DNA of 32,000 nt, from the NCBI RefSeq assembly GCF_003044035.1, contig NZ_NVQC01000036.1, forward strand, positions 1 through 32,000, given 5' to 3'. A model generated the notes under the pieces. The model did not search any database. It was not told where the DNA came from and worked only from the letters and a program-made list of their open reading frames with translations. This DNA is from Candidatus Methylomirabilis limnetica. GTDB taxonomy: Bacteria; Methylomirabilota; Methylomirabilia; Methylomirabilales; Methylomirabilaceae. The position numbers and the translations under genes were made by a program. This document shows, one piece after another, positions 1 to 13,490 of this stretch (its first letter is position 1; each line of letters begins with the position of its first letter).

Positions 1-813
1 GGATTTCGACCGCAGCATGGAAAAGCCTCCGGCTTTCCCATGCTTCCCACAGGCCCGACTATCACTGAACAGAGGTGGGTTCCTTTTGCTTTATCACGGT
101 GGGTCCCTTTTGCGTTGTCAAAACGAGAAGGCTTCCGCCACTGGTGAAAAGCAACGAACCGGCGAATCCATGCCACATAGGCCTGTTCCGTGCGGTAGGC
201 GTAGTGTTCGAGCCGCAAGCATTCCCGCACCCGTGCATCCAACGCCCGCCAATTGACGGCCGTGTGTGTCTTCACCGTCGGCGCCCCTGTCGAGGGTGGA
301 GCCTCGGCAGTCCGAAGCGCCGGAGGGGCAGGGCCAACCGCGGCGCCGGGCTCCATGGCCAGGAGAACATGTTTCCGCTTGACATCCCTACGGCCTGCCG
401 CATATGTTTTGTGCGCATCCTTGCGACTACGCAACTCAGCGACAGGCGTGGGGGTTGGAGGGGAGGGTGGCTCTGAAGCGCTTTTCAGCTCACTTGCATC
501 AAGTCGCGGCGCCAGCGCGATGCCCCGCAACTGCTCGTAGTACAGTTCCATGGCGTCGCGAGCCTGCTGGACCTGCCAGTTGGACACACCCCCGCGTTGT
601 GCGATGTCCGCAAGAAATACCTCGATCTCCGTCCGTCCTAGGTCCCTGCGCCTGCGTCCCGGATGCCGCGCGAAAAACCTTCGCACCCACGCCATGCAGT
701 ACGGGATGGTTTTCTCCTGTGCCCCGGCCTCCCGCAGCACGGCGATGTACCCCCCCCGGCCACCGCGGCTGCGGGTTCAGCGGCGCCACCCCCCGTCGAG
801 TCGTTTGAGGCAT
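1..813 (-). CDS. Tyrosine recombinase, integron-integrase-like (N-terminal part only, runs off the left edge; possibly degraded)
   Basis: It is absent from the ORF track because it has no stop in the window. My hand scan found the minus-strand frame (codons 749-747, 746-744, ...) stop-free from 776 down to base 1. My translation reads ...YIAVLREAGAQEKTIPYCMAWVRRFFARHPGRRRRDLGRTEIEVFLADIAQRGGVSNWQVQQARDAMELYYEQ...NWRALDARVRECLRLEHYAYRTEQAYVAWIRRFVAFHQWRKP... The second block resembles the IntI1 N-terminus as I remember it ([29 protein letters not shown]). The ATG at 813-811 is in a different frame and joins only across a homopolymer run (C8 on the + strand, 750-757). A GTG at 740 is an alternative start. 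The catalytic domain and the IntI-specific insertion lie outside the window. Confidence 0.6.
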
Positions 814-867: not shown

Positions 868-896
868 TTGTCAAGCGGTTTTTAGACGCATATCAT
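868..896 (+). promoter_or_regulatory. Sigma70-like promoter pointing into the cassette array (Pc-like)
   Basis: TTGTCA (868-873), a 17-nt spacer, then TATCAT (891-896) on the + strand. It lies between the recombinase start and the first cassette. Confidence 0.4.
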
Positions 897-926: not shown

Positions 927-951
927 TTTGAGGCATAAGACTCTGTTAGCC
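927..951 (+). other. attI-like simple site ending in the core GTTAGCC
   Basis: The sequence is tttGAGGCATAAGactctGTTAGCC. The right core GTTAGCC (945-951) approximates GTTRRRY, and an imperfect inverted left core GGCATAAG lies 5 nt upstream. The motif TTTGAGGCATA recurs upstream at 804-814, with a variant TTTAGACGCATA at 881-892, each followed by TCATCCC. This resembles the direct-repeat integrase-binding sites of attI. Confidence 0.45.
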
Positions 952-982: not shown

Positions 983-1903
983 ATGAAAACGCCAATTGCA
1001 TGGATGCCAGTGATGGGCCGAATGGATCAGCGAAAAGACAGCATCATCTTCAAAGGCGGAAAGATCGACATTCCTGGGCAGGAACAGGAAGGATCTGAAA
1101 TCGGTCTTTTCCTGTGCAACCGAACCTTCTCAGAAGGGTCAATTGCAGTTGATGTCCGATTTGATGACGTTTCGCCAACCAGTTGTGCCGATGTCGTGCT
1201 CTTCTACGATCCTCAAAACCGATACACACTAAACGCGGGTCTTACGTATCAAAACCTATTCGCCATACGCCACTTCGACACACGATGGACTATTCATGCC
1301 ACAGCCGGCGCGGCAAACGCAATCGAAGCAAAGCGAACATATCGCCTTGAGGCATCATTGCGTGGTTCCACTGTTGCCTTGAAGTGCGACGGGGTAGAGG
1401 TTCTTCGAGTTGTGCTGCCTTTTGTGCTTCCACAAAGTCAGGTAGGCGTGTTCGGCGTTGATCGAACCAATATCGAGTTCAAGAACTTCCTGGTGAGCCC
1501 GGTCAAGCCTCGTGCCTTTGTAGTAATGCAGTTCAGTGCGCCATACAACGATGTCTACTCCGAAGTCATCAAGCAGGTATGCGACGAAGAGGAGGTAGAC
1601 GTAACCCGAATCGATGAAGAAGCTGGCCCCGGCTTAATCATTCAGGACATCAATCGAACGATCCGTGAGTCAAAGATCATTATTGCCGACATAAGTCCAA
1701 TCAACGCGAATGTGTTTTACGAGGTTGGGTTTGCACACGCCTTAAATAAGCCAACGATTCTTCTCGCCGAAAAAGGTACCAAGCTACCGTTTGATGTTTC
1801 TCCGTTCCGTACGCTCTTCTACGAGAACTCAATTGGAGGCAAGCGGTTGTTTGAAGAAGGTCTTCGGAAACATATCCGTGCCTGCCTACAGCAAAAGGGC
1901 TAA
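983..1903 (+). CDS. Uncharacterised two-domain protein: N-terminal beta-sandwich (LamG/DUF1080-like, tentative) plus C-terminal nucleoside 2-deoxyribosyltransferase/TIR-like Rossmannoid domain; integron cassette 1
   Basis: The ORF is 306 aa with a GGGAG Shine-Dalgarno (SD) 7 nt upstream of the ATG. C-terminal motif: FVVMQF...IIIADISPINANVFYEVGFAHALNKPTILLAE...LPFDV. This hhhADhS-x3-N-x-NVFYEhGhAHAhxKPhhhh pattern is what I associate with NDT/TIR-like (STIR-class) domains. The N-terminal half is rich in beta-strand pattern and ends ...VGVFGVDRTNIEFKNFLV, reminiscent of DUF1080/concanavalin-like folds. The domain calls come from pattern memory, not a search. Confidence 0.85.
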   Translation: MKTPIAWMPVMGRMDQRKDSIIFKGGKIDIPGQEQEGSEIGLFLCNRTFSEGSIAVDVRFDDVSPTSCADVVLFYDPQNRYTLNAGLTYQNLFAIRHFDTRWTIHATAGAANAIEAKRTYRLEASLRGSTVALKCDGVEVLRVVLPFVLPQSQVGVFGVDRTNIEFKNFLVSPVKPRAFVVMQFSAPYNDVYSEVIKQVCDEEEVDVTRIDEEAGPGLIIQDINRTIRESKIIIADISPINANVFYEVGFAHALNKPTILLAEKGTKLPFDVSPFRTLFYENSIGGKRLFEEGLRKHIRACLQQKG

Positions 1904-1963
1904 CCCGGCAGTCCACCGGACCTGCGCGAAAAGCCGCGCAGGCCGGTGACTTCAACGTTGGAC
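1898..1963 (+). other. attC-like recombination site of cassette 1
   Basis: R'' is GGCTAAC (1898-1904, containing the TAA stop of the cassette ORF) and R' is GTTGGAC (1957-1963). The central imperfect palindrome is CACCGG-A-CCTGCGCG/AAAAGC/CGCGCAGG-CCGGTG, with extrahelical bases. R'' is the exact reverse complement of the GTTAGCC at the start of the cassette (945-951), as expected for a mobile integron cassette. Confidence 0.6.
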
Positions 1964-2032
1964 GAAAATGAGAAAATAGAGATGAGATCAAAACATCTTG
2001 CATCTGTGTTGCGAATGTGACACAATAGGATT

Positions 2033-2290
2033 ATGAAAACAGCAGTCGTCCACGCGCGTATTGAACCGCAAACAAAGCAAAAGGCCGAAGGGGTCCTTCG
2101 CAAGCTTGGCCTTACTCCCACGGAGGCGATCCGTATCTTCTACCGGCAGATATCCCTCCGTGGCGGATTGCCTTTCCCGGTCGCGATTCCGAACGAGCTG
2201 ACGGCGTCTACCCTGGAGAAGAGCCGTCGCGGCGAACACGTTCAGGAATACGAGTCTTTAGAAGCAATGTTCAAGAATTGGGAGAAATGA
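2033..2290 (+). CDS. dinJ: Type II antitoxin, DinJ/RelB family
   Basis: The 85-aa ORF reads MKTAVVHARIEPQTKQKAEGVLRKLGLTPTEAIRIFYRQI...GLPFP, which aligns by eye with E. coli DinJ. Its stop overlaps the toxin start in an ATGA. Confidence 0.85.
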   Translation: MKTAVVHARIEPQTKQKAEGVLRKLGLTPTEAIRIFYRQISLRGGLPFPVAIPNELTASTLEKSRRGEHVQEYESLEAMFKNWEK

Positions 2291-2559
2291 AGAAGGTCTC
2301 GCAGACCAGGCAGTTTTCCCGGGATATCAAGCGCATGCGGAAACGAGGGGAAGACCTGCACAAGCTGCAGGAGGTTGTCGAGCTTCTGGCCGAGGGCACT
2401 CCGCTTCCAGCAAACCACAGAGACCATCCACTCATCGGACCGTGGCAGCCGTCGCGCGACTGCCACATTGAAGCCGACTGGATCTTGATTTACACTGCAG
2501 ATAAAGACTCGCTTCGGCTTGAACGGACCGGCACGCACCGCGACCTTTTCAAGAAATGA
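2287..2559 (+). CDS. yafQ: Type II toxin, YafQ family mRNA interferase
   Basis: ...HRDHPLIGPWQPSRDCHIEADWILIYTADKDSLRLERTGTHRDLF matches the YafQ signature (DHPL.G.W...RD.H.EPDWILIY...L.FERTGTH). The ATG at 2287 overlaps the dinJ stop. The track ORF begins at a TTG at 2278. Confidence 0.85.
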   Translation: MKKVSQTRQFSRDIKRMRKRGEDLHKLQEVVELLAEGTPLPANHRDHPLIGPWQPSRDCHIEADWILIYTADKDSLRLERTGTHRDLFKK

Positions 2560-2563
2560 GATC

Positions 2564-2602
2564 GTCCAACAGGTCGCTCCAGTCGACGCCGTTAGAACGG
2601 CG
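2564..2602 (+). other. Partial or degenerate attC-like site of cassette 2
   Basis: GTCCAAC (2564-2570) lies 4 nt after the yafQ stop. It fits RYYYAAC and is the exact reverse complement of the GTTGGAC that opens cassette 2 (1957-1963). It is followed by a small hairpin, CGCCGT-TAGA-ACGGCG. No convincing full-length right arm or R' was found. A second GTCCAAC occurs at 2850-2856. Confidence 0.35.
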
Positions 2603-2620
2603 CGGATGAGCTTTGTCATT

Positions 2621-2746
2621 AGGCTAAGGTAGGCCGATAAGATGACCTCAGCTTGACCCCGCGTGCGGGTACCCTCAGCGCGCCCACTGCATTTCCCCGG
2701 AGTAGATCTTCATGATCTTCGTAAGCAGGTCGATGGCGTCGGAGCG
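2621..2746. repeat. Direct repeat copy 1 (aldolase 3' end plus downstream flank)
   Basis: It aligns with 3739-3863. A 25-nt block aggctaaggtaggNcgataagatga has one difference, the middle is more diverged, and the 54-nt coding tail has three differences (hand alignment). Confidence 0.8.
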
Positions 2747-3738: not shown

Positions 3739-3863
3739 AGGCTAAGGTAGGACGATAAGATGAGCGATGCAGACCCTGCACGCGGGTGCCCGCAACGTGC
3801 CTACTGCATCTCCCCGGAGTAGATCGTCATGATCTTCGTGAGCAGGTCGATGGCGTCGGAGCG
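3739..3863. repeat. Direct repeat copy 2 (functional 3' end of fba plus flank)
   Basis: See copy 1 at 2621-2746. Confidence 0.8.
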
Positions 3864-4733
3864 GCGGCGCTGGAACGAGTTGCGGCCGATGATCGTGCCG
3901 AACCTACCGCCATCGCGGATAGCCCGGATCTCATCCAGGACGGCATTATCGTCCTCCTTTGCCGCCCCGCCGGAGAAGATCACCATCCGTCGCCCATCGA
4001 AAGCGCTCTGGACCACATGCCGGACGCGATCCGCCAAGGTCCCGATCGGTACCTTGGTCTTCTCGTAGACCTTCTTGGCCTCCGGCTGCTCGATGTGGGC
4101 GGTGGGTAGCTTCACCTTGATGAGGTGGGCGCCAAGCTGCGCGGCGATCTGTGCCGCGTAGGCCACCACGTCGATCGCCGTCTCGCCCTCCTTGCTTAGA
4201 CCGGTGCCGCGCGGGTACGACCAGCAGACGGCGATCAGGCCGGACGCCTTGGCCTCAGCCGCGATCTCGCGGAACTGCTGGTACATCGTAGCGCAATGAG
4301 CCGAGCCGGGGTAGATCGTGAAGCCCACGCCGACACACCCCAGGCGCAGCGCATCTTTCACGCTGGCCGTCACCGCCGAAAGCGGGTCCTTATCGTCGTA
4401 CAGCACGTCGTGGCTATTGAGCTTCAGGATCATAGGGATCTGGCCGGCGAAGTCCGCCGCGCCTGCCTCGATGAAGCCAAGCGGCGCCGCGTAGGCGCTC
4501 AAGCGCGCCTCAATCGCCAGCTCAAAGTGGTAGTGCGGGTGGTAGGCAGGCGGATTGATCGCGAAGCTACGCGCCGGACCGTGTTCAAAACCTTGATCCA
4601 CCGGCAAGATCACCAGTCGGCCTGTGCCGCCAAGGTAGCCATGGTTCAACAGGCGCGCCAAGTTCGTCAGCTTTCCCGGATTGTCACCACTGTACCATCC
4701 GAGAATCTCACGGGTACGTGTATTCAGGCGCAT
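3801..4733 (-). CDS. fba: Fructose-bisphosphate aldolase, class I (DhnA/FbaB type)
   Basis: The 310-aa ORF contains LVILPVDQGFEHGP...ILKLN...LIKVKLP, which resembles DhnA-family class I aldolases. Confidence 0.85.
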   Translation of the reverse strand: MRLNTRTREILGWYSGDNPGKLTNLARLLNHGYLGGTGRLVILPVDQGFEHGPARSFAINPPAYHPHYHFELAIEARLSAYAAPLGFIEAGAADFAGQIPMILKLNSHDVLYDDKDPLSAVTASVKDALRLGCVGVGFTIYPGSAHCATMYQQFREIAAEAKASGLIAVCWSYPRGTGLSKEGETAIDVVAYAAQIAAQLGAHLIKVKLPTAHIEQPEAKKVYEKTKVPIGTLADRVRHVVQSAFDGRRMVIFSGGAAKEDDNAVLDEIRAIRDGGRFGTIIGRNSFQRRRSDAIDLLTKIMTIYSGEMQ

Positions 4734-4795
4734 CGCCTTCTTCGAATCGGCCCGCAGGTCAAGTTCCGGCCCGGGCCGCGCGCAGGGTGAGCGCG

Positions 4796-5815
4796 TTACC
4801 GCTTCCCTTGGTAGAACTCCTCGGCGAGGATCACGTCATCGGGGCTGCCGATGATTATTGGCACGCGCTGGTGATATTCCGACGGCTCGATGTCCAGGAT
4901 CCGCTCATCGCCGGTGCTGGCCCGTCCCCCAGCCTGCTCCACGATATAGGCCATTGGTGCTACCTCATAGAGAAGTCGGAGCTTTCCTTTGGCATTCTTT
5001 CCCTCGCCGGCCTCGCCCGGGTACATAAAGAGCCCGCCTTCAAGCAGCGTGCGGTGCAGATCCGCCACCATCGACCCGACGTAGCGGAGCGAATAAGGGC
5101 GGCCTGTCGCTTTGTCCGGCGTACTCAGATAATCGACCACCCGGCGAGTCGGTTCGGACCAGCGATGGTAGTTCCCATGGTTCACACTGTACGTCTTGCC
5201 CTGTCGCGGAATCCGAATGTCGGGGTGTGTCAGGACGTAATCGTCCAGCGTATGATCCCATGTAAAGCCATGCACTGCATGACCAGCGGCGTAAACGAAC
5301 ATGGTACTGGGGCCATACATCACATAGCCGGCCGCCACCTGCTCTGTCCCTTTCCGCAAGATATCCGCCGCCATATGTTCCCGCCCATGGCCACGCCGGT
5401 GCCGCACCGAAAAGATCGTTCCCACTGTCCCATTGATGTCGATATTCGACGAGCCATCGACCGGATCGAAACAGACCACATAACTCCCGGGGAGGCAGTT
5501 GCGGTCGACATGTAACGGCGCTTCCATCTCCTCTGAGACCATCGTACAGACGAGGCCGGTCTCCTTTAGCGCATCCACGAGCACATCGTTCGACCAGAGA
5601 TCAAGCTGGGCGATCTGCTCTCCCTGAACGTTTATCTCCCCGGTATATCCCAATTTGCCGTGCAGCGCCGCTCTATTCACCTCCCGCGAAATCAGTTTAG
5701 AGACAGTGCCTATCTTAATGAGAAGCGCGCCCAGGTCGCCCTCTATCGGTGTCCGGTCGTCCAGAAGATGACGGGTAAGGGTGATGCCTTTGCTGATCAT
5801 CGGATCCCCCATCAT
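4796..5815 (-). CDS. fbp: Fructose-1,6-bisphosphatase class 1 (likely FBP/SBPase)
   Basis: The 339-aa ORF contains ITLTRHLL..., VVCFDPVDGSSNID, YVGSMVADLHRTLL.GG.F.YP and KLRLLYE, all class I FBPase hallmarks. There are several possible Met starts (M1/M2/M6). Confidence 0.9.
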   Translation of the reverse strand: MMGDPMISKGITLTRHLLDDRTPIEGDLGALLIKIGTVSKLISREVNRAALHGKLGYTGEINVQGEQIAQLDLWSNDVLVDALKETGLVCTMVSEEMEAPLHVDRNCLPGSYVVCFDPVDGSSNIDINGTVGTIFSVRHRRGHGREHMAADILRKGTEQVAAGYVMYGPSTMFVYAAGHAVHGFTWDHTLDDYVLTHPDIRIPRQGKTYSVNHGNYHRWSEPTRRVVDYLSTPDKATGRPYSLRYVGSMVADLHRTLLEGGLFMYPGEAGEGKNAKGKLRLLYEVAPMAYIVEQAGGRASTGDERILDIEPSEYHQRVPIIIGSPDDVILAEEFYQGKR

Positions 5816-6546
5816 GGGTCTCTGCGTTGTTGTACTGTGACCGTATCGCCGTCCTGCACCAGGACCGTGTCAGCCATACCGATGAAGAGCCCCGTTCCGA
5901 CCACCCCAGGGACCCCAAGGATCGCCTGCTCGAAGGCGGCCGGATCAGAGAGAGGCGAGATGCTGCAGTCAAGAATGTAATTGCCGTTATCGGTCACGAA
6001 CGGCTGTCCGTCATGCTCGCGCACCGCCGGCCGGCATCCGAGTTCTGTGAGACGGCGGCGGCAGAGGGGCAGCCCGAACGGCACGATCTCTACGGGAAGG
6101 ATGCCACGGCTCCCCAGGACCGGCACCAGCTTTTCGGCCCCAACCAGGATGATCAGCCGTCGTGACGAGGCGGCCACAATCTTCTCGCGAACCAGCGCGC
6201 CGCCGTAGCCCTTGATAAGGTCGAGCCGAGGATCGACCTCATCCGCGCCATCAAATGTGACGTCGATATGTGACACCTCATCGAGCGTAGCCAGCGGTAT
6301 CCCAAGCTGCGTAGCCAACGCAGCCGTGACCTGCGAAGTCGAAACCGCCGTAACCCGAAGACCTGCCTTCACCGCTTGGCCCAGGGCGCGGACAAATGCG
6401 GTCGCAGCCCGCCCGGTCCCCAGACCGACTATATCGCCGTCCCTGATGAAATCTAGAGCCATGCTAGCCATGGACGGCTGAGCCCCCAGCGCGCCAGGGG
6501 CATTAGAATGTAGCTGTTGATTGTGAGTATGCGATTCTTGATTCAT
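5812..6546 (-). CDS. rpiA: Ribose-5-phosphate isomerase A
   Basis: It contains DGDIVGLGTGRAAT, FDGADEVD and LIKGYGGALVREKI. Its stop overlaps the fbp start by 4 nt. The N-terminal start is uncertain (His/Gln-rich leader). Confidence 0.9.
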   Translation of the reverse strand: MNQESHTHNQQLHSNAPGALGAQPSMASMALDFIRDGDIVGLGTGRAATAFVRALGQAVKAGLRVTAVSTSQVTAALATQLGIPLATLDEVSHIDVTFDGADEVDPRLDLIKGYGGALVREKIVAASSRRLIILVGAEKLVPVLGSRGILPVEIVPFGLPLCRRRLTELGCRPAVREHDGQPFVTDNGNYILDCSISPLSDPAAFEQAILGVPGVVGTGLFIGMADTVLVQDGDTVTVQQRRDP

Positions 6547-7056: not shown

Positions 7057-8538
<1,482 letters not shown>

Positions 8539-8558
8539 GTGAAAAGGGAGGAAGCATT

Positions 8559-8981
8559 ATGCGAATCACTCAGGGTGCCTTCTCGTTCCTGGCTGATCTG
8601 ACCGATGAACAGATCAGAAAGCAGGTGGAGTATGCGTTGAAAAATAAATGGGCCGTCAGTGTCGAGTTTACGGATGACCCGCATCCCCGCAATACCTTCT
8701 GGGAGATGTGGGGCTTGCCGATGTTCGACCTGGAAGACCCGGCTGGGATTGTGTACGAGATCAATGCTTGCCGCAAGGCCTATCCCAACCACTACATCAA
8801 GGTGAACGCCTTCGACCATACAAAAGGCTGGGAAACTATCCGTATGTCTTTCATCGTTCACCGGCCGACTAATGAGCCCGGCTTTAGCCTTGTGCGCCAG
8901 GAGGTGAAGGGCCGAACCATCAGCTACACCCTACACAGCTATGCCACCGACAAGCCGGAGGGCAAGCGGTATACGGACTGA
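8559..8981 (+). CDS. cbbS: RuBisCO small subunit (red-type, with C-terminal extension)
   Basis: [57 protein letters not shown]. An SD GGGAGGA precedes the ATG at 8559. The track ORF starts upstream at 8433, inside cbbL. Confidence 0.95.
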
Positions 8982-9000
8982 GCACGTTATCGGACATTAT

Positions 9001-9038
9001 GGGAGGGAGAGGGGGGTTCACCCCCCCTCTCCCTCCCC
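9001..9038 (+). promoter_or_regulatory. Perfect 16-bp GC hairpin between cbbS and cbbX (attenuator or mRNA-stabiliser candidate; related to repeat family B)
   Basis: GGGAGGGAGAGGGGGG-ttca-CCCCCCTCTCCCTCCC, with no following U-tract. Confidence 0.5.
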
Positions 9039-9095
9039 ACGCTATGCGGTTCCGAGCAATAGTTGTGAGGACCGCCAGGTGGAGTGAGGAAGTCA

Positions 9096-10058
9096 ATGAG
9101 TGAAACGGAAGTTGAACAAACCCCTGAAGAGAAGGCCTTGTCAAGAATTCCCGACGATACGCCGGTGGATCTTGAAGGTATCGTTCGCGATTCCCAGGTT
9201 CAGGAGGTCCTTGATAAGCTCGACCGGGAACTGATAGGCCTGACGCCGATCAAGACGCGGATTAGAGAAATAGCGGCCTTGTTGCTGATTGACAGGGTGC
9301 GGAAAGGCTTGGGGCTCATGTCAGGACCGCCCAGCCTCCATATGTGCTTTACCGGTAATCCCGGTACGGGGAAGACCACCGTAGCGATGCGGATGGCCGA
9401 GATTCTGCACCGCCTCGGTTACGTCCGTAAGGGCCATTTGGCGGCGGTGACACGCGATGATCTCGTCGGCCAATACATCGGGCATACCGCGCCGAAGACC
9501 AAAGAGGTCTTGAAGAGAGCCATGGGCGGCGTACTGTTTATCGACGAAGCCTATTATCTCTACCGTTCGGAGAACGAGCGTGACTACGGCCAGGAGTCCA
9601 TCGAGATCTTACTCCAGGTCATGGAAAATCAGCGGGAGGATCTCGTCGTCATCCTGGCCGGTTACAGGGACCGCATGCAAACATTCTTCCAAGGCAATCC
9701 AGGGATGTCCTCCCGTGTCGCACATCACTTGGATTTTCCGGATTACTCAGCGGAAGAACTCATAGCGATTGCCAAACTGATGTTGGAAGAACAGCAATAC
9801 CGTTTCAGCCCAGAAGCTGAAAAGGTCTTTCATGCGTATCTTCTCAAGCGCATGCAAATGCCCAACTTCGCTAATGCCCGTAGTGTGCGGAATGCCCTTG
9901 ATCGGGCTCGCCTGCGCCAGGCCAACCGCTTGTTCGCACAACATAGAAACACACTCACGAAAAAAGATCTGGTGACCATCGAGGCTGAAGATATCCTTGC
10001 CAGCCGCGTATTCATGGATGTTCAGCCGGAATCCGATCAGAAAACAGATCGAAAGTAG
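9096..10058 (+). CDS. cbbX: CbbX, red-type RuBisCO activase (AAA+)
   Basis: It has a Walker [12 protein letters not shown] and a Walker B VLFIDEAY, and the overall sequence resembles CbbX. The ATG at 9096 follows the SD GGAGTGAGGAAG. The track ORF starts at a GTG at 9084. Confidence 0.92.
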
Positions 10059-10062
10059 AGCG

Positions 10063-11559
10063 ATGATCGATATCGAGACCCATCGCCGTATCCCCCGCTG
10101 TATGAGCACCCAGCATCCGGACAACGTAACCGTCCCCTTCTTCGCCCAAGGGCCTGTGATGGAGGGGATGGACGAGATCCGGGAGGCCTACTACGCCTTC
10201 TCCCATTTAGGCTGTGATGAGCAGATGTGGGACTTCGAGGGGAAGGAGGTCGATGAGTTCGTCGTCGAGAAGCTCTTGACGACCTACGAGGGGTTCTTCC
10301 GGGAGTTTCCCTTAGGACGGGAGATGTTCCTGACCTTACGAGTTCCGAACCCTGCCGTGGAAAAGGCACAGGGGAAGATCCTCCTCGAAGTCCTCCACGG
10401 AATCCCCAGAGCTTACGATGTGGCCCGCCTCTTCTACGGGGAGGATGTAGCCCCCATCTTCGAGGTCATCCTTCCCATGACCACCTCGGCGGAGGAGCTG
10501 AACCGTGTACTCCGGTACTATCAGGTCTTCGTCACGGGGAAGGGGTCGGCGGTTCTTACCCCCGGTGATATCTCTCTCAAAGAATGGATTGGAGAGTTCC
10601 ACCCCACCACGATCCAGATCATCCCTTTGATCGAGGATAAGGAGTCGCTGCTTCGAGCCGATGCCATCGTCCGCACGTACCTTCAAGACAAAGACCTCTC
10701 GTACCAGCGCGTCTTCTTAGCTCGTTCCGATCCCGCCTTGAACTATGGAAGCCTGGCGGCTAGCCTCCTGGTAAAGGTAGCCTTGAGCCGTCTGGAAAGG
10801 CTGGAGCAGGAGCGGGGGATCCCCATCTATCCGATCCTTGGGGCCGGAAGCGCCCCGTTTCGTGGCAATTTCCGACCCGATACAGTGGAACGACACCTTG
10901 CTGAGCACCCAAGCGTGCAGACGTTCACAATCCAGTCGGCCTTTAAATACGACCATCCGGCTCCTGCGATCATCCAGGCCATCGAGACTCTCAAGAACGC
11001 ACCTAGAAAGAGTGCCCGGCCGGTGGAGCCGGAGGGGAAGGTCATCGATCTGATTGAGCGGATCTCCGCTTGCTACCAGCGTCAAGTAAGAGCGATAGCG
11101 CCCCTTATGAATAACGTAGCCCCCGCCGTTCCCAGGCGGCGGATGCGGAAACTCCATATCGGTCTTTTCGGCTACAGCCGGAGCATCGGCGGGGTCTCGC
11201 TCCCCCGGGCCATCTCCTTCTGTGCCGCCCTTTACTCCTTAGGCCTTCCCCCCGAGATCCTCGGCCTCTCCTGTCTTGGTCAGGAGGATCTGGCCCTTCT
11301 TCGGGAGGTCGACCCGGGGTTCGAGGCCGACCTCGGAGATGCCCTTCAGTATCTGAACGAGGAGGCGCTCACCCTCCTCCCTCCCGCTGAAGCAGGGGAG
11401 ATACAAAGGACCATCCGACTCCTCGGCCTCCCCCTCTCCCCGAATCATGCCCACCGTGAGGTCACTACGACGATTATCAAGCGGGTTGGAGAGGGGAGTG
11501 TCAAGGACCTCGGCGATCTCATCCTCCGGGCAGCCTGGATTCGAAAGTTTCTGGGCTGA
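10063..11559 (+). CDS. ppcA: Archaeal-type phosphoenolpyruvate carboxylase
   Basis: The N-terminal hallmark is RIPRCMSTQHPDN, and the length is about 498 aa. The ATG at 10063 lies 4 nt after the cbbX stop. Confidence 0.85.
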   Translation: MIDIETHRRIPRCMSTQHPDNVTVPFFAQGPVMEGMDEIREAYYAFSHLGCDEQMWDFEGKEVDEFVVEKLLTTYEGFFREFPLGREMFLTLRVPNPAVEKAQGKILLEVLHGIPRAYDVARLFYGEDVAPIFEVILPMTTSAEELNRVLRYYQVFVTGKGSAVLTPGDISLKEWIGEFHPTTIQIIPLIEDKESLLRADAIVRTYLQDKDLSYQRVFLARSDPALNYGSLAASLLVKVALSRLERLEQERGIPIYPILGAGSAPFRGNFRPDTVERHLAEHPSVQTFTIQSAFKYDHPAPAIIQAIETLKNAPRKSARPVEPEGKVIDLIERISACYQRQVRAIAPLMNNVAPAVPRRRMRKLHIGLFGYSRSIGGVSLPRAISFCAALYSLGLPPEILGLSCLGQEDLALLREVDPGFEADLGDALQYLNEEALTLLPPAEAGEIQRTIRLLGLPLSPNHAHREVTTTIIKRVGEGSVKDLGDLILRAAWIRKFLG

Positions 11560-11606: not shown

Positions 11607-12236
11607 ATGATCTCCGCACGGGAAGCACTCAAACGTCTTCGTGAAGGAAACCGCCGTTTCACCTCGAACGTGCAGAGCTTCGACACGCTTCTGAGCCAGA
11701 CCAGACGCGGTGAGCTCCTCACAGGCCAGCAGCCTGTCGCAATCATTCTTGGCTGTTCAGATTCACGTGTTCCAGCAGAAATCGTGTTCGACCAGGGGCT
11801 CGGCGATCTCTTCGTCATCCGGGTTGCTGGTAACATTGTCGCTCCGTGCCTAGTCGGGAGCGTTGAGTATGCCGCTGCCTACTGCGGAACACGTCTAGTG
11901 GTTGTACTTGGCCATTCCCAGTGCGGCGCTATTCTGGCCACATTAGAGGCACTGAGGCAACCTATGACGGTCCAGTCCCGCAATCTGCACTCCATCATCG
12001 ATCATATCCGCCCGTCAGTCGAGGGCCTCCTCAGTGCTGAACCCCAGCGCGATGCGAACGACCTTATTCGAGATGCAGTTCGCGCTAACGTCCTCGCCTC
12101 TGCTAACCACCTGCGACACGGCTCTGAACTTCTCGAGAAACTGATCCTCAATGATGGCCTGCTTGTCGTTGGCGCTGAGTACTCGCTCGAGACTGGTCTG
12201 GTCGAATTCTTCGATGGCGTACCGGACGCTGCCTGA
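11607..12236 (+). CDS. Beta-class carbonic anhydrase
   Basis: It has the zinc ligand motifs LGCSDSRV and GHSQCGA, plus FVIRVAGN. Confidence 0.9.
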   Translation: MISAREALKRLREGNRRFTSNVQSFDTLLSQTRRGELLTGQQPVAIILGCSDSRVPAEIVFDQGLGDLFVIRVAGNIVAPCLVGSVEYAAAYCGTRLVVVLGHSQCGAILATLEALRQPMTVQSRNLHSIIDHIRPSVEGLLSAEPQRDANDLIRDAVRANVLASANHLRHGSELLEKLILNDGLLVVGAEYSLETGLVEFFDGVPDAA

Positions 12237-12332
12237 CTACCGCTCGATGACAGGCTTAACCTCCTGGTCATGCATGATAGCGGGAATGCATGATTGAGGT
12301 AGTTTGACCTTCAGAGCTGAGAATAGGAATCA

Positions 12333-13490
12333 ATGAGCAACCATCAGGGTCTCGGCTGGGCAGCCGATCGGGTTCCCTCTACCCGCCGCGCCTGGGTAGA
12401 GGTCGATCTCGGGGCGATCCGACGAAATGTGCAGGCGATCCGACGGCTGCTGAGACCGTCGACGCAGTTCATGTCGGTCGTCAAGGCTGATGGCTACGGC
12501 CATGGCGCCGTTGCGGTCGCCCGGACGGCGCTCTCGGCCGGTGCCTCGTGGCTTGCGGTGGCCACGCTTGAAGAGGGGATCCAGTTGAGGCAGGCTGGGA
12601 TTGAGGCGCCGATTCTCCTCTTCGGTCCCACGATCTGTAAAAAGGAAATCGAGGCAGTTGCCGAGCATCGGCTGCAGCCTACCGTCTGTAGCCTCGATCA
12701 TGCCCGTCGGTTCTCCGAGGCGGGTCTGGGGCCGATCCAGATTCACCTGAAGGTCGATACCGGCATGTCCCGTCTGGGAGTAGCCTGGCAGGAGGCTCAG
12801 GATCTCCTCAACACCATCAGACTCTTGCCCAATGTCACTGTCGCCAGTCTCTACAGTCATCTGGCCACGGCGGATGCAGCAGATCCCGTCACGACCGCCC
12901 AGCAATTCGAGCGATTTGCCAGGCTGGTAGCCATGCTGGAGAAGCAGGGGACCAGGCCTCCATTGGCGCACCTGGCCAACTCTGCCGCTACATTAGCGCT
13001 CCCAGAGACCCACTTCGATCTGGTCCGAATCGGGTTGGCTCAGTATGGCCTGTACCCAGCCTCTCACCTTCAGGAAGTTGTGGTCCTTCACCCCGCCCTC
13101 TCTGTCAAAGCAAGGATCGTCTTCATCAAGACGGTTCCACCAGGGACCGGGGTCAGTTACGGTCACACCTTTCGAACGGGACGCCCGACGCGACTGGCCA
13201 CCGTGTCCATCGGCTATGGCGATGGTATCCCCCGCGCCCTCTCAAACAGGATCGACTTCCTGGTTCGCGGTCGGCGGGCTCGGCAGGTGGGAACGATCAC
13301 GATGGACCAATGTCTGATCGATGTCACCGATATGCCGGATACGTTCGAGGGAGAGATCACCACGCTGCTTGGGCAGGACGGGGACGAGCGTATCTCGGTC
13401 GCGGAGTGGGCAGAGCGCCTGGGGACTATCCCGTATGAGATCCTCACGGTCCTCTCCCCTCGCCTGCCGAGGATTTTCTCCCAGGACTGA
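12333..13490 (+). CDS. alr: Alanine racemase
   Basis: It has the PLP-lysine motif VVKADGYGHGA and a C-terminal beta-barrel region with SYG..F, plus MDQCLIDVT. Confidence 0.93.
   Translation: MSNHQGLGWAADRVPSTRRAWVEVDLGAIRRNVQAIRRLLRPSTQFMSVVKADGYGHGAVAVARTALSAGASWLAVATLEEGIQLRQAGIEAPILLFGPTICKKEIEAVAEHRLQPTVCSLDHARRFSEAGLGPIQIHLKVDTGMSRLGVAWQEAQDLLNTIRLLPNVTVASLYSHLATADAADPVTTAQQFERFARLVAMLEKQGTRPPLAHLANSAATLALPETHFDLVRIGLAQYGLYPASHLQEVVVLHPALSVKARIVFIKTVPPGTGVSYGHTFRTGRPTRLATVSIGYGDGIPRALSNRIDFLVRGRRARQVGTITMDQCLIDVTDMPDTFEGEITTLLGQDGDERISVAEWAERLGTIPYEILTVLSPRLPRIFSQD

Follow-up and report, generated by a model that had tools for sequence, protein, structure and literature searches.

Which function is carried by the first cassette of the integron that opens this stretch of DNA from Candidatus Methylomirabilis limnetica (contig NZ_NVQC01000036.1)? 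The stretch as a whole, here called the window, comprises 32,000 nucleotides, and coordinates given without a locus name are window positions. The gene in question encodes a 306-amino-acid (aa) protein in which a ConA-like beta-sandwich is followed by a domain of the nucleoside 2-deoxyribosyltransferase (NDT)/DNPH1/TIR type, and the first-pass annotation had put it forward as a candidate single-gene defence or nucleotide-processing effector. The folds of both domains, the residue Glu247, the cassette context and the lack of a partner gene all support that candidacy. We propose, with a probability of roughly 0.55, that the gene encodes a single-gene, cytoplasmic anti-phage protein that combines a sensor with an N-glycosidase and spreads as an integron cassette.

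The open reading frame (ORF) is a real, functional gene and not a chance frame, because it has many full-length homologues and a ratio of nonsynonymous to synonymous substitution rates (dN/dS) of ~0.04. A ribosome-binding site, GGGAG, lies 8 nt 5' of the ATG, and the motifs first picked out in the translation (FVVMQF, IIIADISPINANVFYEVGFAHALNKPTILL and LPFDV) are all found there. Among 5.8 billion proteins, a search yielded 1469 homologues at E<=1e-3, and nearly all of these are ~300 aa long and align over their whole length. When 1.84 billion representatives clustered at 50% identity were scanned exhaustively with HMMER, 264 scored E<=1e-30 and 6030 E<=1e-10, and the two-domain, full-length architecture is retained throughout. 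The ORF as initially drawn is thus secure, and only the label "orphan" is wrong, since it belongs to a large family. Relative to close homologues, dN/dS is ~0.04 in each half of the protein, and dN of the N-terminal domain is ~3 times that of the C-terminal domain.

The gene sits in a genuine, mobile integron cassette, as had been supposed. Core sites of the form GTTRRRY, with crossover after the G, bound the cassette at GTTAGCC (944-950) and GTTGGAC (1957-1963). The same cassette occurs in the middle of an array of ~30 co-oriented small ORFs on a 16.5-kb metagenomic contig (L006), where the encoded protein is 95% identical; in a blastn comparison the alignment covers 945-1959 exactly, at 88.5% identity, with none beyond, and these two ends are the crossover points of the two core sites. 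R'' of the attC site (GGCTAAC, 1897-1903) is the exact reverse complement of the 5' core site, as expected for a circularisable cassette, and as single-stranded DNA the attC site (1897-1964) folds into a hairpin of -22.6 kcal/mol (z -4.9) with bulged bases. A covariance model built from 14 other attC sites of L006 recovers it at E 1e-11, and a second-generation model at E 1e-9; the consensus from RNAalifold on a MAFFT alignment of attC sites was poor, and the structure of the covariance model was entered by hand. Across 1.18 Mb of homologue loci the second model gives 66 hits, 66/66 on the strand of the family gene. In another copy (L098; 99% aa identity) the downstream genes differ from those of the window. 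Just past the cassette copy in L006, an IS21-like pair (a protein with the Mu-transposase C-terminal domain and an IstB ATPase) is inserted at 8235-10512.

The association with attC extends to other members of the family. The covariance model places an attC site at the stop codon of the family gene in 11 loci (the window, L006, L011, L025, L032, L033, L037, L043, L065, L066 and L082); with L008 (Aeoliella mucimassa) and L013, which an independent heuristic based on hairpins contributes, the union is at least 13/85 loci spread over different phyla. Used alone, the relaxed form of this heuristic detects 10/85 loci, compared with 47/2000 random windows (2.4%), and misses sites that the covariance model detected; a stricter form that demands near-perfect R''/R' pairing detects 5/85 and is too strict.

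What the cassette encodes was approached through AlphaFold2, run on a 57-sequence alignment. The whole-protein model has a predicted local distance difference test score (pLDDT) of 90.2 and a predicted template-modelling score (pTM) of 0.86, and consists of two compact domains. The predicted fold of aa 176-303 is of the NDT/DNPH1/TIR type, and in alignments Glu247 and Asp222 take the places of the nucleophile and the catalytic Asp of DNPH1. Foldseek matches to the PDB include DNPH1, the NDTs of T. brucei and Desulfotalea, the CMP N-glycosidase BcmB, and the TIR domains of SARM1 and TIR-1, at E 1e-5 to 5e-4 and template-modelling (TM) scores of 0.55-0.78. Among them, the entries of NDT/DNPH1 fold (9i9q, 8osc and 8rpt for DNPH1, with 2a0k, 7o62 and 4jen) match at E 1e-5 to 3e-4, and those of TIR fold (SARM1 and TIR-1; 8p2m, 7cm7 and 9mw2) at TM 0.66-0.71. 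A viral structure library yields a 'CMP/hydroxymethyl-CMP hydrolase' (E 2e-9, TM 0.77), and a BFVD protein annotated as a Cap12/Pycsar TIR matches at TM 0.75. At the level of profiles, the C-terminal ~130 aa match positions 234-373 of the 388 in PADLOC model PDLC00733, 'Effector/TIR' (E 2e-13), of which positions 1-233 are left unmatched. Likewise, four PHROG families of unknown function match the effector domain, the best being phrog_3634 (E 1e-29). The 306-aa protein has no NCBIfam match, and none of 5027 PADLOC models covers it as a whole.

The residues of the predicted active site are conserved in the family. The HMMER alignment places Asp222, in QDIN, on the Asp of QDLN in Rcl/DNPH1; three PDB constructs carry D, N or A at that Rcl position and thereby identify it as the engineered catalytic Asp. 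Glu247 never varies, either in 57 sequences or in 130 (the latter down to 31% identity), and Asp222 is kept in at least 90% of the 130 representatives. N243, G249, F270, D271, R276 and Y280 are also invariant, and K256 is conserved. The initial reading of this half as a Rossmannoid domain of the NDT/TIR-like clade, with Glu247 where such enzymes place their catalytic Glu, is therefore sustained by the predicted fold, a sub-threshold PF05014 match, PDLC00733, the alignment with the Rcl/DNPH1 Glu and the invariance of that residue among homologues. Within the NDT/TIR superfamily the effector domain forms a clade of its own, for which Pfam has no model. Membership of DUF4062 (PF13271) was considered and rejected, there being no Pfam hit and an hhalign E of 0.24 to a genuine DUF4062 protein; membership of the ThsB-type or canonical TIRs was rejected in the same way (no TIR Pfam hit; hhalign E 0.37 to a ThsB-type TIR).

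These matches are also the ground of the main rival to our proposal, which we regard as unlikely: a DNPH1-like sanitiser of the nucleotide pool, that is, an N-glycosidase with constitutive activity that would rid the pool of non-canonical or modified forms of (deoxy)nucleoside monophosphates, such as 5-hydroxymethyl-dUMP/dCMP, or of damaged bases. Its beta-sandwich could serve as an oligomerisation or substrate-recognition module, and its role could be housekeeping or a non-abortive defence that starves phages with modified DNA. The top structure and sequence matches are indeed DNPH1, Rcl and CMP/hydroxymethyl-CMP N-glycosidases and not canonical TIRs, the Asp and Glu of the DNPH1 dyad are both conserved, and the segment AD-I-S-P-x-N-x-N-V-F-Y-E-V-G resembles the DNPH1 segment AEVTQPSLGVGYELG. 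A phosphate could be bound by the invariant R276 and the conserved K256, and certain members of the family lie in plain chromosomal settings. DNPH1 itself features Tyr24 and a GSIRGG phosphate loop, however, and neither has a counterpart in the aligned region. Spread by cassette, prophage and plasmid without vertical conservation is unlike that of a housekeeping enzyme, and the effector domain has relatives that are joined to TPR-S sensors and lie beside TIR genes.

The N-terminal half, aa 7-174, has no Pfam match, and one homologue bears a precomputed match to PF06439 (DUF1080). Foldseek against the PDB places it closest to the fructan-binding CBM66 of B. subtilis levanase (4azz/4b1m; E 3e-8, TM 0.82), followed by GH16 glucanases, DUF1080-type proteins and galectins (3imm, 3u1x, 3s5q and 8v31 among the matches), so that the lectin/LamG/DUF1080-type beta-sandwich suggested from the letters can be specified as a ConA-like jelly roll. 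Among the 130 representatives the only conserved residues of this domain are glycines, none being acidic or polar, and the domain therefore looks, in the model, like a binding or regulatory scaffold and not a glycosidase. GH16- or DUF1080-type catalysis was rejected because the acidic residues are not conserved. The 306-aa sequence has no signal peptide or transmembrane segment, and the lectin-like domain is therefore cytoplasmic.

Taken at face value, the sugar-binding relatives of the N-terminal domain would point to a carbohydrate or nucleoside enzyme of metabolism or resistance, in which the lectin domain binds a sugar or glyco-nucleoside and the NDT-like domain cleaves or transfers the base, for example in the inactivation of nucleoside antibiotics or the processing of nucleotide sugars. 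Besides the CBM66 match and those to DUF1080-type sugar-processing proteins, such a role is favoured by the nucleoside-antibiotic pathway enzymes of the BcmB/MilB type among the C-terminal matches and by the frequency of resistance genes in integron cassettes. Yet the domain is cytoplasmic, the conservation of glycines alone argues against a fixed small-molecule site, and no conserved biosynthetic or transport genes lie nearby. We consider this role very unlikely.

Where the family occurs, and with what, bears on the defence proposal more directly. Relatives are present in at least 541 GTDB species (scanned with one genome per species), including Nitrospira, where the copy has 70% identity, Omnitrophota, Latescibacterota, Gemmatimonadota, Verrucomicrobiota, Bacteroidota, Acidobacteriota, Planctomycetota, Chloroflexota, Bacillota, Spirochaetota and several Proteobacteria. 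An all-versus-all comparison of ORFs within 4 kb found no recurrent neighbour in ~84 loci, the commonest family being present in 4 loci at varying positions, and the family gene therefore works alone. Overall, the family is large, under purifying selection, fixed in its two-domain architecture and without a partner gene, in line with the absence of partners first noticed in the window. A conserved, non-mobile housekeeping context, named at the outset as a finding that would speak against defence, is not what the family has. Its settings are integron cassettes, cargo of prophages or satellites, and plain chromosomal genes. Among cultured isolates, a member with 43% identity in Burkholderia sp. 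Bp8992 (L056 3010-8960) lies directly past the P2-type tail genes gpU/gpD, has a strong terminator behind it and is apparently carried as cargo by a P2-like prophage. In Herbaspirillum autotrophicum the family gene lies between the integrase and the capsid/portal genes.

The effector domain alone is likewise carried by mobile elements. It is present in 48 records of temperate Streptococcus or Staphylococcus phages and on 104 plasmids. In prophage 315.2 its gene separates the repressor from cro and is on the repressor (lysogeny) strand (hhalign probability 99.2%). On the E. coli IncP plasmid pKMi029_2 (L096 4974-8170), an N-terminal NDT/TIR-like domain is fused to TPR-S sensor repeats in the first gene of a four-gene cluster that continues with two ThsB-like TIR genes and a DUF4231 gene; the cluster appears to be a TIR-based conflict system, so far undescribed and carried by a conjugative plasmid. 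Arrays that bear homologues of the cassette gene also hold DUF4062 and HEPN_AbiU2 cassettes along with many toxin-antitoxin (TA) modules. In the Gemmatimonadota array (L009), a DUF4062 protein (12218-13246; E 2e-31) is encoded ~1.3 kb downstream of the homologue in the same orientation, and it has no match among the PADLOC 2023 models.

The abundance of TA cassettes in these arrays raises the further alternative that the gene is an addiction or stabilisation module, a toxic N-glycosidase with the beta-sandwich as its antitoxin in cis, which would stabilise the array without sensing phage. TA cassettes stabilise chromosomal integrons (10.1101/2024.07.02.601686), the gene stands alone without a partner, and the predicted effector chemistry is toxic. 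A fused antitoxin, on the other hand, needs differential degradation for post-segregational killing, and neither a protease site nor a labile linker is evident; the AlphaFold2 model is that of a compact two-domain protein, and the sites as prophage cargo fit defence better. We judge this alternative to be quite unlikely and, like the carbohydrate or nucleoside enzyme, less likely than the sanitiser.

How might a defence protein of this kind operate? In the scheme that we favour, the gene would be expressed constitutively, because it holds the first cassette position and adjoins a promoter-like site; this site is the sole one in 600-2100 (shuffles give 0.8) and is weak evidence when taken alone. 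In an uninfected cell the beta-sandwich would hold the glycosidase inactive, by blocking the dimer or oligomer interface on which NDT/TIR enzymes depend or by covering the active site. A phage-derived ligand, which may be a protein, a glycan or a modified nucleic acid, would bind the sandwich and free the effector domain, whereupon Glu247, together with Asp222, would attack C1' of the ribose or deoxyribose and cut the N-glycosidic bond of NAD+ or (deoxy)nucleotides. Depletion of the pool would then halt phage replication through abortive infection or growth arrest. The trigger, substrate and phenotype in this scheme are inferred. Its elements have precedents: the NDT-like effector of retron Ec86 has the catalytic residue E106 (10.1101/2023.08.16.553469), DUF4062 proteins act as TIR-like NADases encoded by one gene, with auxiliary regions that vary (10.64898/2026.06.25.731849, 10.64898/2026.05.01.722283), and the TIR protein SpbK binds a protein of the phage (PMC12847820). 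A more specific version, which is doubtful and which we offer tentatively, holds that a cytoplasmic lectin-fold phage sensor governs a DNPH1-like domain, not a TIR-like NADase, that strikes the deoxynucleotide pool or the modified nucleotides of the phage, and that these proteins are a so far unrecognised, phylum-spanning single-gene immune family, spread both as an integron cassette and as prophage cargo.

Several observations weigh against a defence function. The autoinhibition step is pure inference. The matches of aa 176-303 to solved structures are moderate, at TM 0.6-0.78 and 17-20% identity; PF05014 (NDT) scores 25.1 bits, below its gathering threshold of 28.8 (E 2e-5, aa 209-267), and no TIR family of Pfam (PF01582, PF13676, PF08937) matches even at E<=10. 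Diversifying selection on the N-terminal domain is not seen at the level of the whole domain, where the dN/dS given above indicates purifying selection. Many distant members (e.g. in Hymenobacter and Bryobacterales) lie in ordinary chromosome without attC, some of them followed by terminators. Finally, nearness to TA and defence cassettes is weak evidence, because it is expected for any integron cassette.

The features of the cassette and its surroundings are listed in Table 1.

Table 1. Positions of the cassette gene, its predicted domains and residues, and the surrounding integron features in the window.
Feature	Position	Strand	Description
intI, integron-type tyrosine recombinase, N-terminal fragment	3..776	-	Divergent from the cassettes; runs off the window
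Promoter candidate, sigma-70-like, Pc-type	868..896	+	TTGTCA-17-TATCAT in the intI-attI spacer, directed into the cassettes; 10/12 matches
Core site GTTAGCC, attI/cassette junction	944..950	+	Cassette 1 starts at 945 (start of L006 homology)
Cassette 1 ORF	983..1903	+	306 aa, ATG to TAA; ConA-like beta-sandwich fused to NDT/DNPH1/TIR-like domain
N-terminal domain, aa 7-174	1001..1504	+	All-beta jelly roll of 14 strands (AlphaFold2); putative sensor/regulatory module
C-terminal domain, aa 176-303	1508..1891	+	Rossmann-like alpha/beta, predicted N-glycosidase type; AlphaFold2 of the domain alone, pLDDT 85.4
Asp222 codon GAC	1646..1648	+	Aligned with the catalytic Asp of Rcl/DNPH1
Glu247 codon GAG	1721..1723	+	Predicted catalytic nucleophile; aligned with the Glu of Y-E-L-G in Rcl/DNPH1
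attC, cassette 1	1897..1964	+	R'' GGCTAAC 1897-1903, including the TAA stop; R' GTTGGAC 1957-1963
Cassette 2	1958..2625	+	RelB antitoxin 2033..2290 and YafQ toxin 2278..2559; Pfam RelB, YafQ_toxin

Upstream of the array, the product of 3..776 has its best NCBIfam match in TIGR02249, 'integron integrase' (E 6.5e-17), over model positions 4-43 only, and matches Pfam Phage_int_SAM_4 in two stretches; the gene encodes two N-terminal SAM-like segments with a Pro/Ala-rich linker between them. The catalytic domain is outside the window, so that intI is truncated by the window, and it is probably interrupted below position ~115, because similarity to integrases vanishes there. What was annotated as the integrase gene is accordingly an N-terminal fragment only, and it looks interrupted. 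A perfect stem-loop, GCATGGGAAAGCC/GGCTTTTCCATGC, lies within positions 1-110, as do two repeats, AAAAGGGACCCACC and AAAAGGAACCCACC, and the same gene order recurs on an independent metagenome contig (L099; 686x coverage) that starts at position 74, which suggests that a repeated element interrupts intI.

Downstream, the claim of two TA cassettes stands for one of the two. The RelB/YafQ module ends in its own attC site (2563-2625; covariance model E 3e-5), of which R' is degenerate (ATTAGGC) and R'' (GTCCAAC, 2566-72) is complementary to the 5' GTTGGAC of that cassette (1957-63). After the Phd/ParE module the covariance model finds no attC site, and a third cassette is therefore not demonstrable. 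This module lies between the copies of a 131-bp direct repeat (2621-2752 and 3739-3869; 87-96% identity), which is made up of the final ~23 codons of fba, the gene for the class I aldolase (3801..4733, minus strand), and ~60 nt downstream of it. The left copy begins 3 nt past the crossover point of the degenerate R' of the second attC site; the right copy is preceded by an R'-like GTCAGGC, and the homology stops exactly at GTTAGTAC (2753). The repeat could stem from an element with a replacement 3' end or from an event at an IntI secondary site. The genes that adjoin the integron, 3801-6546 on the minus strand, encode class I fructose-bisphosphate aldolase, FBPase and ribose-5-phosphate isomerase; the aldolase shares 89% identity with proteins from Candidatus Methylomirabilis/NC10 metagenome-assembled genomes, in keeping with an origin of the window in Methylomirabilota.

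If the proposed defence function is true, a compact (0.9 kb), partner-free system would be added across many little-studied phyla, among them NC10/Methylomirabilota, Nitrospirota, Planctomycetota, Acidobacteriota and Bacteroidota. It would show directly that immune genes pass between phyla through environmental chromosomal integrons, and it would introduce the ConA-like jelly roll as an intracellular sensor of infection. The Asp/Glu dyad also raises the question of whether a stand-alone NDT-fold defence might deplete deoxynucleotides or modified nucleotides and not NAD+, which would set it apart in mechanism from the TIR, SIR2 and DUF4062 NADases. Should the reading as a lectin-fold sensor with a DNPH1-like effector be true, both the sensor fold and the effector chemistry would be new for stand-alone defence. 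If the protein is instead a sanitiser, it would be the equivalent of DNPH1 in bacteria, equipped with a regulatory domain of an unusual kind.

Comparison with known systems was made for each domain and for the fusion. The N-terminal domain has the jelly-roll fold in common with CBM66, ConA-like lectins and DUF1080 (PF06439); identity is ~14%, however, the 306-aa protein is cytoplasmic and without a Pfam hit in this region, and neither acidic residues of GH16 type nor polar ligand-binding residues are conserved. Similarly, DNPH1/Rcl, the NDTs (PF05014) and BcmB/MilB resemble aa 176-303 in fold (Foldseek E 1e-5, TM up to 0.78), and the Glu of Y-E-x-G and the upstream Asp of DNPH1/Rcl and the NDTs fall at aligned positions in the cassette protein. 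The cassette family differs from DNPH1 and the NDTs in its low identity (17-20%, with PF05014 below cut-off), its mobile context, its own invariant motifs (LPFD and R276...Y280) and the ~170-aa ConA-like domain, which is absent from those enzymes.

Among defence systems, PDLC00733 and the Cap12/Pycsar TIR effectors resemble the C-terminal 130 aa by profile and by structure, respectively, whereas the cyclase that marks CBASS and Pycsar is neither in the window nor conserved near homologues. Assignment as a CBASS/Pycsar effector was rejected on these grounds, with only the effector part of the model matched and no conserved neighbour in the ~84 loci. The toxic arm of type II retrons (Ec86/Eco1 and Sen2 RcaT) in phage defence is an N-glycosidase of NDT fold that has a catalytic Glu (10.1101/2023.08.16.553469), and both fold and Glu are shared. 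In contrast to retrons, there is no reverse transcriptase or non-coding RNA near the cassette gene, whose neighbours are the intI fragment and TA cassettes, and no PADLOC retron model is hit, so that a retron type II effector was likewise rejected; the regulator would here be a fused protein domain and is multicopy single-stranded DNA there.

The closest parallels in design are the DUF4062 systems (Swarozyc, Evangelion) and SpbK, which also join an effector of the TIR/NDT superfamily to a variable auxiliary or sensor region in one polypeptide and are also carried by mobile elements (10.64898/2026.05.01.722283, 10.64898/2026.06.25.731849, PMC12847820). The cassette effector, by comparison, is neither DUF4062 nor a ThsB-type TIR, and its auxiliary domain is a ConA-like jelly roll, for which we found no report as part of a single-gene TIR-like defence. 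The initial description as an undescribed system therefore holds in part: we found no paper in the full-text literature that describes the ConA-like and NDT-like fusion, and no PADLOC model spans the protein, but a sensor fused to an NDT/TIR-superfamily effector on mobile elements is already well known as a general design. One more single-gene system of the TIR/NDT type would be of little surprise to specialists; it is the lectin-fold sensor, the spread of the cassette across phyla and the DNPH1-like dyad that make this family a good and easily testable candidate.

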